A stretch of 64,000 nt of DNA from the sequence record MG983840.1; one strand, 5' to 3'. The position numbers and the translations under genes were made by a program. Shown in pieces: positions 39,151 to 53,059 of the stretch. The notes beneath the pieces were generated by a model. That model was not told the origin of the DNA. It made no database searches and saw only the letters and a program-made list of their open reading frames with translations. The stretch's first letter is position 1; each line of letters begins with the position of its first letter. Origin of the DNA: Escherichia phage myPSH1131.

Positions 39151-39525
39151 CTACCAGTCTTGTTCTTCGTCGATATGATAAATCCAAGCGATAACAGTTT
39201 CACCTGAGTCCATCTTAACAGCAATCTGAGTACGCTGATAGAAGCTGTCTTCAGGGCTACGTTTGTTGTAACCTTCCAGACGGTCATACGGACCTTCCAG
39301 ACCTGCTTTGTCAGTAGCAAACACTTCTACACGAACAGGCTTGTTGTTATTGCTGTGTGCGAGAGAGATGCTCGGGAAGTAGGAACCACCGTAACGGAAC
39401 AGATCAAAGTTGTCTTCAGTCCAACCTTCACCAATTGACTTAGCACCAGCTCGGTCATTAACTAAATAGTTAGCTTGACCACGACGAAGAGAACCATAAG
39501 TTGCTACGTAAATTACTTCTGACAT
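39151..39525 (-). CDS. gamma-glutamyl cyclotransferase-like (GGCT/AIG2 family) protein
   Basis: N-terminal YGSLRRGQANY matches the YGTLKRGQPN signature; fragments of this gene recur at 41282..41470 and 38520..38676. Confidence 0.5.
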   Translation of the reverse strand: MSEVIYVATYGSLRRGQANYLVNDRAGAKSIGEGWTEDNFDLFRYGGSYFPSISLAHSNNNKPVRVEVFATDKAGLEGPYDRLEGYNKRSPEDSFYQRTQIAVKMDSGETVIAWIYHIDEEQDW

Positions 39526-39553
39526 TATCTATACCTTTGTTGGTTTGTTTAGT

Positions 39554-39778
39554 TTATCCGACGTTAGCATTTAAGCGAAGTTCCTGAATCTTAGTGTCAA
39601 TTGAGGGCCATAAGGAAGAACACGCACCATTGTTAGATACCTTTAAGTTTAAGAATTTCGTTAGAACGCGATCTCCAATACGAACATCAATGCTGGAGGA
39701 ATTAACAGCTGAGTGTGGTGCATCAATAACACCATCATCAATTAATTTATGTAACTCTGGACTTCCTAGTAAACTCAT
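39554..39778 (-). pseudogene. N-terminal fragment of dCTP-deaminase-like gene
   Basis: Matches first ~35 aa of 34629..35162 then diverges. Confidence 0.45.
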
Positions 39779-39787
39779 TCTTATTCC

Positions 39788-41101
39788 TTAGTTATTTGTT
39801 TCCATGTCAAAAGAGATTCCACGACCCGCTTCATCGGCAAACCGAACTGTACGGGTTTGAGGTTCTAATACTTCAGGGTTGTTAGCAATAAAGCGATCAG
39901 CGAGACTATCTCCCAAATCTTGTTCCATACCTTCATCAGTCCAGATAACACGAGAAGGGGCGTTGATATCACCAACAGCGAAACCCTGACCAGAGAACTG
40001 ACGTGCGCTAACAGTTAAGCCGTTTGGTCGACCACGAGAGGGTCTAGCCATCCATCGCTCCATAGAATCACTTGTAATACCAAGAGCTTCTTCAAAAGAT
40101 GTTCTACGAGTAGGGCTTTCTCTTCGTGACTCTTGTGCTCGACGCATTGCAGGGGCTACAAACACCCCTTCAATTGCATTGTGTCGGTTAGGTTCCTCTT
40201 CTCGACCAAGCAGATCACCACCCGTGTTAGTCGTTAAATTTGTCAACCCCTCAGACCAATACGCATGAATCTGACCAGAACCGTGAAGACTAGACATAAT
40301 CTGAATCTCTTCATAAGGGATTCCAAAGAATCGACTCATGTCTCGGTTAACACAATATAGAGCACTTGTTGTATCTTCAATAAGAGAAACCTGACCTAAT
40401 CCATTGACTAGATGACTAACTGGCTGAGGTGTGGGAAGATATCGAGTTTGGGCCATGTATTGATGCGCAACTGCTGGAGAGGAAAATCTCAACACTTGTG
40501 AGTTAGGCCACTTCTTGTGAACATACCTGATTTCACGACTAGAGACAACCACTGGACAAGGGGAAGTCATAGCCAAATATCCGTGAGAAGTCATGAATAA
40601 GTTGTCAAGAGTCATCGCACCACGGCACATCATAGGAAAATTATCCAATACCTCTTCAATAGAAGTAGGATAATTAAACATGAATTGGATACGAACCCCA
40701 TTCCACTGAAACTCAATAATATCAGTGAATGTTAATTGAGAACCCCCAGCATAGGATTCGTTTGTAGCTTCAGCAAGAAGTGATGCATATTCAATATCTT
40801 GTGACTCTAGCCATTCCTTCACATTACTTTCAATCTCCCGTCCAAGCTCTTGCCAACGATCAGTTGGGATGAAAGTGTTTTGAGTTCTTGGTGTTTGTCC
40901 TCTGACAATAAAGATATCAATGTCATGTGGAGCTATGTTATTAAGGACAGCATCACGAACAGCCCCACCAGTAATGATGGGACAGATACCATCTGGAATC
41001 AAGTTGTTGTTAATCAACTGTTCAATGAAGTGACGACCAACAGTGATATCAGGTTGTTGAGCAACCTTATCTTCAATTTGGTTAATCGGGATAACAATCA
41101 T
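39788..41101 (-). CDS. nucleotidyltransferase, second diverged copy
   Basis: Collinear with 35378..36751, same GGAVRD...DIDIF motif, scattered substitutions and a ~20-aa internal deletion. Confidence 0.55.
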   Translation of the reverse strand: MIVIPINQIEDKVAQQPDITVGRHFIEQLINNNLIPDGICPIITGGAVRDAVLNNIAPHDIDIFIVRGQTPRTQNTFIPTDRWQELGREIESNVKEWLESQDIEYASLLAEATNESYAGGSQLTFTDIIEFQWNGVRIQFMFNYPTSIEEVLDNFPMMCRGAMTLDNLFMTSHGYLAMTSPCPVVVSSREIRYVHKKWPNSQVLRFSSPAVAHQYMAQTRYLPTPQPVSHLVNGLGQVSLIEDTTSALYCVNRDMSRFFGIPYEEIQIMSSLHGSGQIHAYWSEGLTNLTTNTGGDLLGREEEPNRHNAIEGVFVAPAMRRAQESRRESPTRRTSFEEALGITSDSMERWMARPSRGRPNGLTVSARQFSGQGFAVGDINAPSRVIWTDEGMEQDLGDSLADRFIANNPEVLEPQTRTVRFADEAGRGISFDMETNN

Positions 41102-50588: not shown

Positions 50589-51122
50589 TTATAAAGGCGA
50601 TACCACGTTGCTTAAACGTACGTTGTCCTCTTGGAGACGTGTATGCCGAAGTCGTTGCGTCGATGAAAAATCAATATCGTTTTGCGTAAACATGCCTACC
50701 ACTGCAAACGCAGGGCAGAAATTGCTACGGTAACGATGGTAGCCTGAACACTTGAACAACATCTTTTCATAGAAGGTCCAAGCGAGAATGGTTTTCTTGA
50801 GGATATTACTATCAGCATCCCTCATATCCATATGAACGTGAGTAGAGCAACGCCAAGTCCCCTCGGCGTGCGATTCAGCTACTGCTTCACTCAGGTTGTT
50901 GATAGCGTCTAACAACTCCTGTCCATTGTAAGGTCGTGAACATACCATTTCACAACCATTACGCAGGGAACCATCCTCTGTACAATCCCACATATCTGCT
51001 TCGATATGATCGGAACCTTCGAGTTCAAGTTCAATACCGACGCCGCACTGAAGTGCAATTGAACTATGCGCCTCAGTTAAACGACCTTCTCGATATCCAA
51101 AAGTTTGCGCTACAGTTGTCAT
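50589..51122 (-). pseudogene. truncated second copy of amidoligase-like gene
   Basis: First ~140 aa identical to 48957..49742, then diverges and stops. Confidence 0.5.
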
Positions 51123-51736
51123 AACGAATCCACCAACGTAATATTATAATTGCTAAGGTTTTCAGAAATGTGATGAAAGTGTTCCAGAAGTCGCATCGGT
51201 TGCTGACCGTAAGAGTCACGAGGTGCTTCCAGACCTACTTGCCCTACCAGTGCACCTTTATAATGCACCTTACCATCAGTAGGGTTGATGTAAATATAAC
51301 GAGTAACCAATCCCTCGAATTCAGGATTGAACAGACTGTAAACCATCTCCCCGGAGATAGCACGACCAACACCCGGAGCATTTCGAATCTTGTTACCCAT
51401 CAAACCCTTTGCTCTCTGACGAACAGGGTTAATATGAGTCCAGCTTACAGTGTTACCGTTATGGAACAGATAACCAACATCAGGTGATTCAAGAATCAAG
51501 GTTGGGTCGAACACTGGAATATTCATCGTAGTGTTTCGAAGGTGCCCTTGCTCATTCTTGTACCACTGCTCTACAACAAAATACAGAGCCTGCTCTGCTT
51601 CGTGAGAGAAGTCATCGCTGCGGAAGTTACCGCTCTGCTCAACACCAATCACAAAACATGGAAGGTTGATATTACCTGCTCGTTTAGCAATCCATGTACC
51701 ATTATAGTAATGAGAAAAATCAGCTACTAAGCTCAC
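51119..51736 (-). CDS. hypothetical protein (205 aa), second copy
   Basis: Collinear with 49739..50356 with scattered substitutions. Confidence 0.4.
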   Translation of the reverse strand: MSLVADFSHYYNGTWIAKRAGNINLPCFVIGVEQSGNFRSDDFSHEAEQALYFVVEQWYKNEQGHLRNTTMNIPVFDPTLILESPDVGYLFHNGNTVSWTHINPVRQRAKGLMGNKIRNAPGVGRAISGEMVYSLFNPEFEGLVTRYIYINPTDGKVHYKGALVGQVGLEAPRDSYGQQPMRLLEHFHHISENLSNYNITLVDSL

Positions 51737-51745
51737 GATAACCTC

Positions 51746-53059
51746 TTATGCTACCTGAAGGAGTTTGATCTGCTGGTCAGCTTCTTTAACGTTGTTCCCG
51801 TTAATGATTTCATGAAGCTTCTCAATCGGAAGGCGAGAGTGCAATGCCATCAGAGTGGACATATCACACTGCTGAACAACCTTGTCAACCTGATCGTAAA
51901 CAAACTTACGGTTTTCACGATCACTAATCCAGAAGTTAGACAGCGAACGGTATTCGATACCATAGTCTTTATAACGGATTGCAGATGCTTTGCCATAGAG
52001 TTCTTTACGGCGAGTATCTTTGTCCATGATTACTGCTGGGAGAGACAGGAAGTAGTCACACAGCACACCCAACATCATCTGAGTTTGTAGAGTGATATCT
52101 AAAGCACCTACTACACCAAGATGTACGTGACCGCCAGCAGTACGAAGTCCCTTGTTCTGAGAAGTGGGGGACGGATTTTTCTGACCAGTGAAAGCGTTGA
52201 AGTCAGGAGTACATCCAAAGATGAACGCTGATTCATTAAAGGTCTTCATTTCTTCTTCGGTGAAGATGTGAGAGCTAACACCCGGAGCTGTTTCCATGTC
52301 CAGTTTGTTCAGGACATTATTGGTAAGATCGATACCACGTTGCATGTTATCCAACTTGTCGTCTATTGCTTCACGTTGCGGTTTCATACTCGTCCGGGTC
52401 TTGATCTTTAGCAGCGTCTTCGTAAGGCCCTTAACCACTCTGACATTGTTTACTTGGCTCTCTTCATCTTCAAAATAGAAGGTTCGATCTAACATCAAAT
52501 AGAACAGACAACGATCAGCAGGAACATTCTCAGTTGCTACACCCATAAAACCTTTTTCGTGCCAGCGTAAACAGGAGGGACGATCTTTGTCCACAAATGC
52601 TTCCATAGCTTCCAGTACAGCACGAGGTGTGGTTCGGTGTTCAGGGTTTTTGTCGTTCCAACGTTCGATGTTATTTTTAGGAGGTGTGTCTTCATCTTCA
52701 TATGAACACCAACTTAAAGCTTCAGCTACGTGCTTTTCATCACGCCAGCGTCTGAAACCTAACATCTTCATGTGAGTTCCGGAGTTCCAGATATGCTTGA
52801 TTTTACACATATCCATTTCTCGGCTTAGCCGGAACTCTTCTCCATCAGCACTACGAACGTTAGCTTCTTCATGCCACACTCGAACGTGCATATTCCACCC
52901 ATGAGTTGCCTCATAAGTGTTAGGTTCAAAATATTCATCATACTCTTCATCGTCTTCATCAACGCCACCGTTATAGTTGCGAAGCTGAAGGAACCCATAA
53001 CAAGGGGGGTTGACCGTTAAAACATTACCTTCAGTATCTTCTAATGTTACTGGAAACAT
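51746..53059 (-). CDS. hypothetical protein (437 aa), acidic N-terminus, GGHVHLG motif
   Basis: ORF; LRTAGGHVHLGVVG segment; function not assignable. Confidence 0.4.
   Translation of the reverse strand: MFPVTLEDTEGNVLTVNPPCYGFLQLRNYNGGVDEDDEEYDEYFEPNTYEATHGWNMHVRVWHEEANVRSADGEEFRLSREMDMCKIKHIWNSGTHMKMLGFRRWRDEKHVAEALSWCSYEDEDTPPKNNIERWNDKNPEHRTTPRAVLEAMEAFVDKDRPSCLRWHEKGFMGVATENVPADRCLFYLMLDRTFYFEDEESQVNNVRVVKGLTKTLLKIKTRTSMKPQREAIDDKLDNMQRGIDLTNNVLNKLDMETAPGVSSHIFTEEEMKTFNESAFIFGCTPDFNAFTGQKNPSPTSQNKGLRTAGGHVHLGVVGALDITLQTQMMLGVLCDYFLSLPAVIMDKDTRRKELYGKASAIRYKDYGIEYRSLSNFWISDRENRKFVYDQVDKVVQQCDMSTLMALHSRLPIEKLHEIINGNNVKEADQQIKLLQVA

Follow-up and report, generated by a model that had tools for sequence, protein, structure and literature searches.

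The question raised by this locus is whether a cluster of glutamate- and glutamine-handling enzymes, encoded on the minus strand of a 64,000-nucleotide stretch from Escherichia phage myPSH1131 (MG983840.1; the whole stretch is referred to as the window), represents an expanded phage-encoded pathway acting on gamma-glutamyl or amide bonds, and what such a pathway might do. For positions 39151-53059 the first-pass annotation had described a GGCT/AIG2-like protein, an ATP-grasp ligase, a class-II glutamine amidotransferase (GATase) and an amidoligase, together with conserved partners of 205, 437, 82 and 61 amino acids (aa), and had counted the copy-number expansion of the ATP-grasp and amidoligase units in favor of the pathway. 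Region 39151-53059 is instead a degraded, chimerically assembled copy of the phiEco32/Kuravirus amidoligase cassette. On balance we consider it probable that the artefact origin of this region and a mechanism of gamma-glutamyl attachment, elaboration and removal for the intact cassette hold together. The arrangement as such is already known as a predicted system, being the namesake of the Pfam family PF14395, present in PHROG families and annotated in dozens of phage genomes.

The window is Kuravirus (phiEco32/SU10-like) sequence. By megablast, region 39151-53059 matches 98 phage records, nearly all of them Escherichia/Shigella Kuravirus (phiEco32-like, Gordonclarkvirinae), with SU10, ES17 and Bas91 being closest at 95-97% identity. 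SU10 served as intact reference and its proteins were compared with the window by tblastn. Mapping of the window onto SU10 revealed that the order is disturbed across the entire window, beyond the cluster too, by duplicated and deleted blocks and short foreign inserts. Moreover, separate searches with the three ATP-grasp repeat units picked out GenBank MG976803.1 (Escherichia phage myPSH2311), which is at least 99.5% identical to the window over 36.8 kb in the form of long 100% blocks and has junctions in common with it, the triple ATP-grasp repeat among them. For the myPSH2311 genome, scaffolds of 5.9 Mb were first assembled de novo with CLC and then taken through "reference-based assembly via CONTIGuator2" (PMC6437105); MG976803 is a pseudomolecule of short scaffolds put in order on a reference, and its annotation is rich in shortened genes, among them those of the portal (405 bp) and the major head protein (399 bp) and pieces of the ATP-grasp gene (249 bp). 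To judge from the common blocks, the window is clearly the same kind of product, and both probably go back to one and the same material. Its duplicated blocks, truncated genes and fusion open reading frames (ORFs) are explained by contigs of several co-occurring Kuravirus strains having been concatenated on one reference. As a chimeric pseudomolecule, the window therefore offers "paralogues" and fusion ORFs that are not to be read biologically.

The cassette as written in the window consists of the following pieces, in which gp numbers denote the SU10 homologues, assigned by tblastn:

39151-39525, minus strand: GGCT/AIG2-like protein (gp078), residues 1-123 of 139 at 100% identity, last 16 residues gone
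41282-41470, minus strand: second GGCT piece, residues 1-49 fused to unrelated sequence (repeat family D10)
41472-41681, minus strand: 69-aa protein (gp079), intact, 100% identity
41735-42165, minus strand: 61-aa and 82-aa proteins (gp080, gp081) of repeat unit A
42172-43011, minus strand: ATP-grasp fragment A (gp082), open frame for residues 122-400 of 400, no start codon before residue 211
43161-43591, minus strand: 61-aa and 82-aa proteins of repeat unit B
43598-44401, minus strand: ATP-grasp fragment B, residues 156-400 of 400, N-terminus (APGVSSHIFT) derived from a small piece of the gp088 ligase gene
44473-44903, minus strand: 61-aa and 82-aa proteins of repeat unit C
44910-46070, minus strand: RimK-like ATP-grasp copy C, residues 26-400 of 400, first 11 codons foreign, including a gp090 scrap
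46246-46473, minus strand: DUF7195 small protein (gp084), residues 1-64 of 77, C-terminus replaced
46476-48636, minus strand: class-II (Ntn) GATase (gp085), disrupted; Pfam GATase_6/7, with a beta-barrel and zinc-ribbon C-terminal extension
48719-49742, minus strand: Amidoligase_2 copy 1 (gp086), in frame to about residue 255, followed by an 80-nt deletion and small indels
49739-50356, minus strand: 205-aa protein (gp087), here called X3, copy 1, intact, 99.5% identity to SU10 gp087
50369-50593, minus strand: isolated piece of the PF14395 ligase, residues 194-268 of gp088, 88% identity
50589-51122, minus strand: Amidoligase_2 copy 2, truncated after residue 151
51119-51736, minus strand: X3 copy 2, intact, 96.6% identity to SU10 gp087
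51746-53059, minus strand: chimeric 437-aa ORF composed of gp090 residues 1-225, gp089 scraps and gp088 (PF14395 ligase) residues 68-268

Most cassette genes thus written would be non-functional, and tblastn with the SU10 proteins found no homologues of gp089 and gp083 in the window. The GATase reading frame is not intact: 76 bp are exactly duplicated in tandem (48229-48380), which puts the sequence after codon 110 out of frame and leads to a stop after 118 codons, and near the 3' end a patch of about 100 nt (46542-46641) replaces a CxxC motif and part of the last zinc ribbon. The exact tandem repeat fits overlapping contigs that were joined end to end without merging. Of the partners named in the first-pass annotation, the 205-, 82- and 61-aa proteins were confirmed, whereas the 437-aa protein is a window-specific chimera hiding a second ligase (PF14395): none of the 69 matching phage records spans its inner junction, and an exact-protein lookup in public assemblies found no record of it.

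The three repeat units carry the argument on copy number. Pairwise they are 91.5-93% identical (B versus C, 91.5%). Unit C (44429-46038), in contrast, is 100% identical to phage ES17 over 1610 bp, and for unit B (43117-44327) the identity is 100% with Shigella phage ShigP1 and with myPSH2311, and 99.9% with several more phages; for the ATP-grasp of unit A, the best full-length phage-record match among the matches listed reaches 95.6%. Because true duplicates should be nearest to each other, yet two of the three units match different strains exactly, an artefact is favored. This pattern would be expected when variant contigs of a mixed lysate map to one reference interval and are then written out serially. 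The alternative, that the additional ATP-grasp, 82-aa, 61-aa, amidoligase and 205-aa units are genuine tandem amplifications in a viable phage, could draw on the fact that the repeats are direct, of one orientation and regularly spaced at 1312-1426 bp, and that the three units are also present in a deposited record, MG976803. However, MG976803 itself stems from reference-ordering of scaffolds, and among the matches listed it is the only record in which the ATP-grasp unit is present more than once; no other record checked has more than one copy, and X3 is single-copy in all 115 phage records carrying it. Furthermore, every ATP-grasp copy is N-terminally truncated, the copies are not mutually closest, the junctions are filled with scraps of 40-100 nt from other cassette genes, and essential genes are broken elsewhere in the window, e.g., the primase/helicase, which is without residues 56-156. 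Genuine amplification is in our view extremely improbable, and the copy-number argument falls with it, the extra units being variant contigs concatenated in tandem. Copy 2 of the duplicated Amidoligase_2 block is 95.8% identical to copy 1.

The window as a whole (1-64000) is a mosaic relative to SU10, in which fillers of 70-100 nt separate the 100%-identical blocks common with MG976803. Block 11142-14221 repeats part of 1-8000, and 20757-24280 repeats 14222-17200. The gp074 homologue, a CCA-adding-like nucleotidyltransferase, is present twice (35378-36808 and 39788-41158), the two copies having 93% identity and the same first 208 nt; its doubling appears to be the same sort of variant-contig duplication as the cassette repeats. 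The primase/helicase is split into 37720-38628 and 38734-38913, and in its long ORF the N-terminus is joined to a short piece derived from GGCT (RYGGSYFPSIS). The PHROG family phrog_20552 (82 positions) corresponds to exactly the final 82 residues of the ATP-grasp protein and resembles the 82-aa "ATP-grasp enzyme" fragments (249-bp coding sequences) of MG976803, and misassembly may have seeded it as a spurious family.

What the native cassette looks like can be taken from SU10, in which the order of transcription is gp090 (399 aa), gp089 (323 aa), gp088, the PF14395 ligase "Phage phiEco32-like COOH.NH2 ligase-type 2" (called CNL2), gp087 (X3), gp086 (Amidoligase_2), gp085 (GATase), gp084 (DUF7195), gp083, gp082 (ATP-grasp), gp081, gp080, gp079, gp078 (GGCT) and gp077, followed by the primase/helicase and an exonuclease subunit. 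Start and stop codons overlap within the operon, according to the SU10 and LUZ24 coordinates. Pseudomonas phage LUZ24 has the same gene order in gp14-gp25, at identities to SU10 of 40% for CNL2, 33% for Amidoligase_2, 34% for the GATase, 32% for the ATP-grasp protein and 27% for GGCT; its X3 is weakly similar to that of SU10 (E=0.005) and in the equivalent position. UFV-P2 and tf are annotated with the same arrangement. The gp079 homologue is confined to Kuravirus and was seen in one of 79 loci.

For the wider distribution, IMG/VR was scanned with two CNL2 motifs, which resulted in 78 loci; ORFs were called, an iterative profile was used for each family and the 52 loci with enough flank were counted. 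These encode a GATase in 52 cases, Amidoligase_2 and the ATP-grasp protein in 51 each, X3 in 42 and GGCT in 39, and all five occur together in 37. CNL2, X3 and Amidoligase_2 are contiguous in 38 of the 52, and this trio is kept in most loci in which other genes are reordered. The cassette usually adjoins replication genes. Profile searches and gene-neighborhood comparison, which the first-pass annotation had proposed as checks, thus upheld the families, and the genes co-occur as a set in related phages, in the same order in SU10 and LUZ24 and across the IMG/VR loci.

Upstream of CNL2 lie one or two proteins of 200-400 aa, which fall into unrelated clusters. Remote homology between lineages was considered for them and rejected, and since all hhalign probabilities were below 20% they are taken as lineage-specific. 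One of these clusters is Peptidase_C26 (PuuD-type gamma-glutamyl hydrolase), with 11 of 11 scanned members above the Pfam cut-off. Among the 52 loci, 36 encode only GGCT, 11 only Peptidase_C26, three both and two neither (Fisher p=4e-7, kinship ignored). C26 in place of GGCT looks like a non-orthologous displacement in these loci. As GGCT and Peptidase_C26 are nearly mutually exclusive, cleavage of a gamma-glutamyl amide would be an integral step of the cassette; the best evidence that gamma-glutamyl removal is obligatory is that unrelated folds with one common activity swap. The gamma-glutamyl/amide theme of the first-pass annotation is strengthened by this swap. In cassettes lacking GGCT, the Peptidase_C26 gene lies directly upstream of the ligase (IMG/VR loci L017, L022, L043, L052-L063, L069, L077 and others).

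The enzyme assignments themselves are solid to different degrees; the residues of catalytic type are invariant in all five enzyme families, in 48-72 non-identical relatives each. The GGCT/AIG2-like assignment was borne out, the piece at 39151-39525 matching Pfam PF06094 (GGACT) with E=1.9e-14 and 54.7 bits against a cut-off of 22.8 (intact SU10 gp078, 63.6 bits). Over 48 relatives, conservation is 97% for Y10, G11 and L13 of its motif Y10-G11-x-L13 and 100% for E84, and the window copy keeps these residues. For the amidoligase-like protein, PF12224 is matched at 48957-49742 (E=1.8e-8, 35 bits against a cut-off of 22), as predicted, and E31, E33, E58, H95, H97, E119, E186 and R188 are 100% conserved in 63 relatives. 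CNL2 is recognised in the 437-aa ORF over residues 68-268 only (PF14395, E=9e-8, 32.1 bits against 25), and this part lacks the conserved residue D11 and the likewise conserved N-terminal catalytic residues E13 and E54, whereas intact SU10 gp088 is above the PF14395 cut-off and has a complete catalytic core. The Amidoligase_2 and CNL2 profiles gave no matches when compared with solved structures.

The ATP-grasp assignment was sustained in part. K85, K173, E157, R159, D229, E241 and N243, which include the ATP-binding Lys and the Mg-binding Asp, Glu and Asn, are 100% conserved in 67 relatives, and RimK is the best solved-structure sequence match (7qys, 5zct, 4iwx; E=1e-3 to 1e-2), covering about 80 residues; phrog_2599 is matched as well. 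The Pfam scores of 44910-46070, on the other side, stay below the cut-offs (RimK 16.0 bits against 21, Dala_Dala_lig_C 17.1 against 24; E about 0.005-0.009). The idea that the C-terminal domain of the Kuravirus ATP-grasp protein is a fused form of the ORF following the ATP-grasp gene elsewhere was rejected, as no BLAST similarity was found.

The class-II GATase assignment was substantiated by a match above the cut-off to PF13522 (GATase_6) in the window (E=1.4e-11). The Cys directly after the initiator and the glutamine-binding set (C2, R29, R86, H110-N111-G112, D129-S130) are 93-100% conserved; in class-II GATases, this set of Cys, Arg, Asn-Gly and Asp-Ser binds a gamma-glutamyl moiety with free alpha groups. 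For an intact relative, AlphaFold2 gave a model (predicted local distance difference test, pLDDT, 86) in which a disordered linker separates the glutaminase domain from a beta-barrel and zinc ribbons. By Foldseek only the first ~250 residues match solved structures (GlmS, AsnB, PurF and EgtC; GlmS glutaminase domain E=6e-11), and beyond about residue 232 neither Pfam nor solved structures gave a match or a recognisable synthase/acceptor domain. The region from about residue 200 to 450 is common to the family, and the zinc ribbons are missing in short marine forms. The gene starts with ATT followed by the codon of the catalytic Cys (window 48634-48636; SU10 record position 57320), with a GGTGGA Shine-Dalgarno-like motif upstream; this would be a rare non-canonical start. 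Loss of the start codon in the window was considered and rejected, because SU10 carries the same ATT, suggesting that it is native. The phiEco32-type annotation uses a downstream start, which removes the catalytic Cys and gives a protein of 563 aa.

X3 has no Pfam match and no solved-structure sequence match. It was modeled (pLDDT 68) as a pair of SH3/Tudor-like barrels with a conserved loop of low confidence between them; only G88, R106 and G165 reach 90% conservation, no Lys, Glu or Gln is invariant and the C-terminus is not conserved. For gp089 and gp090, comparison with solved structures, Pfam and PHROGs resulted in nothing informative. DUF7195 is represented by intact SU10 gp084 (PF23825, E=4.7e-17). 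This protein of about 75 aa (SU10 gp084/LUZ24 gp20) lies between the GATase and the ATP-grasp protein only in the Kuravirus and LUZ24 lineages, and with helices after a basic strand (RRIPM) it may be a small DNA-binding regulator. A LysW-like carrier with acidic C-terminus was rejected for it, as the C-termini are not conserved and the family is limited to these two lineages.

How might the intact cassette work? Ligases of the glutamine synthetase (GS)/GCS fold (GS, GCS, PuuA, PafA) convert the gamma-carboxylate of glutamate into an acyl phosphate and transfer it to an amine, ATP-grasp enzymes of the RimK type attach glutamate to a carboxylate, and GGACT/BtrG cyclotransferases and C26 (PuuD) hydrolases strip gamma-glutamyl from amines, the products being 5-oxoproline and glutamate, respectively. 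In a first step, one GS-like ligase, CNL2 or Amidoligase_2, would use ATP to join the gamma-carboxyl group of Glu to a substrate amine. More amide bonds would then be built on the intermediate by the ATP-grasp enzyme, the other GS-like ligase and the GATase, with the GATase acting either as ammonia donor from glutamine or as a hydrolase, i.e., a second deglutamylase. Finally, GGCT would take off the gamma-glutamyl group as 5-oxoproline, a step that the Peptidase_C26 hydrolase would perform in other phages. X3 probably holds both GS-like ligases together or presents the substrate, an adaptor role suggested because it has no enzyme-like fold and its gene lies nearly always between the two GS-like ligase genes. 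Rather than DNA, the substrate may be a small amine, an amino acid or a short peptide; this is our best guess, and in any specific substrate we have essentially no confidence. A generic cycle of attaching gamma-Glu, elaborating the product and removing gamma-Glu, as in the Puu and butirosin pathways, is favored because gamma-glutamyl removal looks obligatory from the GGCT/C26 swap; we would give it a little short of an even chance.

Several points weigh against the artefact origin or against the proposed cycle. The window is not identical to MG976803.1, about 6 kb (46039-52110) being present in the window only and gp089 being missing from it, and the origin of the window is deduced from the blocks that the two have in common. 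The ATP-grasp scores fall below the Pfam thresholds, the exclusivity figure for GGCT and C26 disregards the relatedness of the loci, and the X3 model is moderate, its unmodeled part being the most conserved segment of the protein. Moreover, the GATase could be either an ammonia donor or a peptidase, and substrate and step order are conjectural.

Known systems offer partial likenesses. The phiEco32-type amidoligase/ATP-grasp/GAT-II/AIG2 system (PF14395, PF12224) comprises the same genes, with intact sets in SU10 and phiEco32 and a predicted function, whereas the window copy is fragmentary and chimeric. It was reportedly Iyer, Abhiman, Burroughs and Aravind who predicted this system in 2009 in Mol Biosyst. 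Two later papers cite that analysis (PMC10580990, PMC10945688). In line with the first-pass annotation, which knew of no biochemically characterised function for the arrangement, no biochemical work on the cassette enzymes or their substrate was found in the literature searched. In the Puu pathway of E. coli, the GS-family ligase PuuA gamma-glutamylates an amine and the C26 hydrolase PuuD removes Glu, and C26 is present in 14 of the 52 cassette loci; however, the cassette lacks any oxidase or dehydrogenase, contains a class-II GATase and two additional ligases, and has ligases that are remote from PuuA. For the butirosin side chain, the ATP-grasp enzyme BtrJ adds and the GGCT-fold enzyme BtrG removes gamma-glutamyl; the cassette pairs the same folds and may follow the same logic of transient gamma-glutamylation, but among its proteins neither an acyl carrier protein nor a decarboxylase or acyltransferase was recognised. 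Ergothioneine synthesis likewise combines a GCS-type ligase (EgtA) with a class-II GATase-fold hydrolase removing gamma-glutamyl (EgtC). The solved structures matched by the GATase domain include EgtC, yet the glutaminase domains of GlmS, AsnB and PurF match better, and no EgtB/EgtD-like genes are present.

The Pup ligase system (PafA/Dop) also has two GS-like paralogues beside a small protein with a disordered conserved segment, and a pupylation-like tagging of peptides or proteins has to be considered, in which one GS-like paralogue would add a glutamyl tag to host or phage proteins and another enzyme would remove it, X3 being modifier, target or adaptor. This would account for a gene order in which a small non-enzymatic protein comes between the two GS-like paralogues, which resembles the arrangement of dop-pup and pafA, for the predicted disorder of the most conserved X3 segment, and for the closeness of the ATP-grasp protein to RimK, which ligates glutamate to the C-terminus of a protein; roles of such ligases in peptide tagging also appear, to go by its cited title, in Iyer et al. 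2009. Yet X3 is a two-barrel protein of 180-240 aa without a conserved C-terminal Gln/Glu, it has few conserved positions of any kind, it is missing from about one fifth of the loci, and neither conserved C-termini in X3 and DUF7195 nor proteasome genes were seen in the loci. In addition, the gamma-glutamyl groups that serve C26 and GGCT-fold enzymes as targets have a free alpha-amino group, as is typical of small molecules. RimK (S6:L-glutamate ligase) itself is the best structural sequence match, and the depositors named the product "ribosomal protein S6 glutaminyl transferase"; the match, however, spans only about 80 residues below the Pfam RimK threshold, and S6 as substrate has no support. 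Tagging is, on this evidence, rather unlikely.

The position beside replication genes suggests another possibility, namely that the cassette makes or finishes a covalent modification of DNA or nucleotides, guarding the genome against restriction. Gordonclarkvirinae resist restriction-modification (RM) systems by a mechanism that is not known (PMC11990801), and in viral contigs amidoligase- and amidotransferase-like genes co-occur with thymidine-hypermodification genes (PMC8989533). SU10 keeps 13 EcoRI, 38 EcoRV and 11 EcoKI sites; since EcoRV sites are in excess and EcoRI and EcoKI sites are kept, site avoidance alone cannot explain the resistance. On the other hand, RsaI, HpaI, EcoRV, SmaI and HaeIII all cut the DNA of phage tf, which carries the cassette, and this DNA could be cloned and ligated (PMC3517423), the thymidylate synthase of SU10 is ThyX and not a hydroxymethylase, and the zinc-ribbon C-terminus of the GATase is dispensed with in the short marine versions. 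No cassette protein matches a known base-modification family in Pfam or PHROGs, and none has a Pfam match to the thymidine-hypermodification set (5-HMUDK, aGPT-Pplase, dUMP hydroxymethylase). A DNA-modifying role is unlikely. A variant of the gamma-glutamyl cycle, in which the intact cassette, conserved in Kuravirus, LUZ24-like phages and many marine podoviruses, would make a novel gamma-glutamyl-protected amine conjugate that is put on phage DNA or a replication-linked target and so explains the RM resistance of Gordonclarkvirinae, is by our estimate quite unlikely. In the SU10 genome (L001-L003), BamHI (0 observed, 12 expected), PstI (0, 19), Dcm CCWGG (6, 101) and GATC (163, 306) sites are strongly avoided, and EcoRV sites are over-represented (38, 19).

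Proximity to replication genes bears also on the proposal that the cassette alters the host envelope, i.e., peptidoglycan or another surface polymer, blocking superinfection. One paper attributes this view to Iyer et al. 2009 (PMC10580990). The Pfam entry PF14395 reportedly notes cell-wall modification, and ligases of these folds build cell-wall peptides. The cassette is, however, co-located and co-inherited with replication and not with lysis or envelope genes, and none of its proteins is annotated as membrane or exported protein in SU10 or LUZ24, which makes an envelope role very unlikely. Auxiliary metabolic genes that raise nitrogen, glutamate or glutathione metabolism of the host were proposed for a Planctomycetes phage with GATase, amidoligase, "glutathione synthase" and GGCT (PMC10945688) and for OM43 phages (PMC10580990). 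The published evidence is correlative, the proteins are remote from housekeeping enzymes, with no solved-structure sequence match for either GS-like ligase, and the fixed multi-gene set travels with the phage-specific X3; we regard this explanation as very improbable indeed. The tagging, envelope and nitrogen-metabolism explanations each fit fewer observations than the gamma-glutamyl cycle.

The main lesson of the window is one of caution. The intact cassette comprises at least six genes, or roughly 10-15% of a 45-kb podovirus genome, has strictly conserved active sites, is present in every well-flanked relative examined and has been known since 2009; what it does is a worthwhile question. The present analysis adds to the known system the fixed CNL2-X3-Amidoligase_2 trio, the alternation of GGCT and Peptidase_C26, and the lineage-specific proteins upstream of the ligase. 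The GGCT/C26 swap and the ligase-X3-ligase trio are concrete experimental handles, and SU10, the BASEL phages Bas86-93 and LUZ24 are tractable. SU10 also encodes a Macro domain protein (gp033; L002 34011-34451), a YspA/SLOG-like protein just under the Pfam cut-off (gp031; L002 32955-33347) and a ferritin-like "DNA binding protein" (gp067; L001 3708-4271) in its replication/early region.

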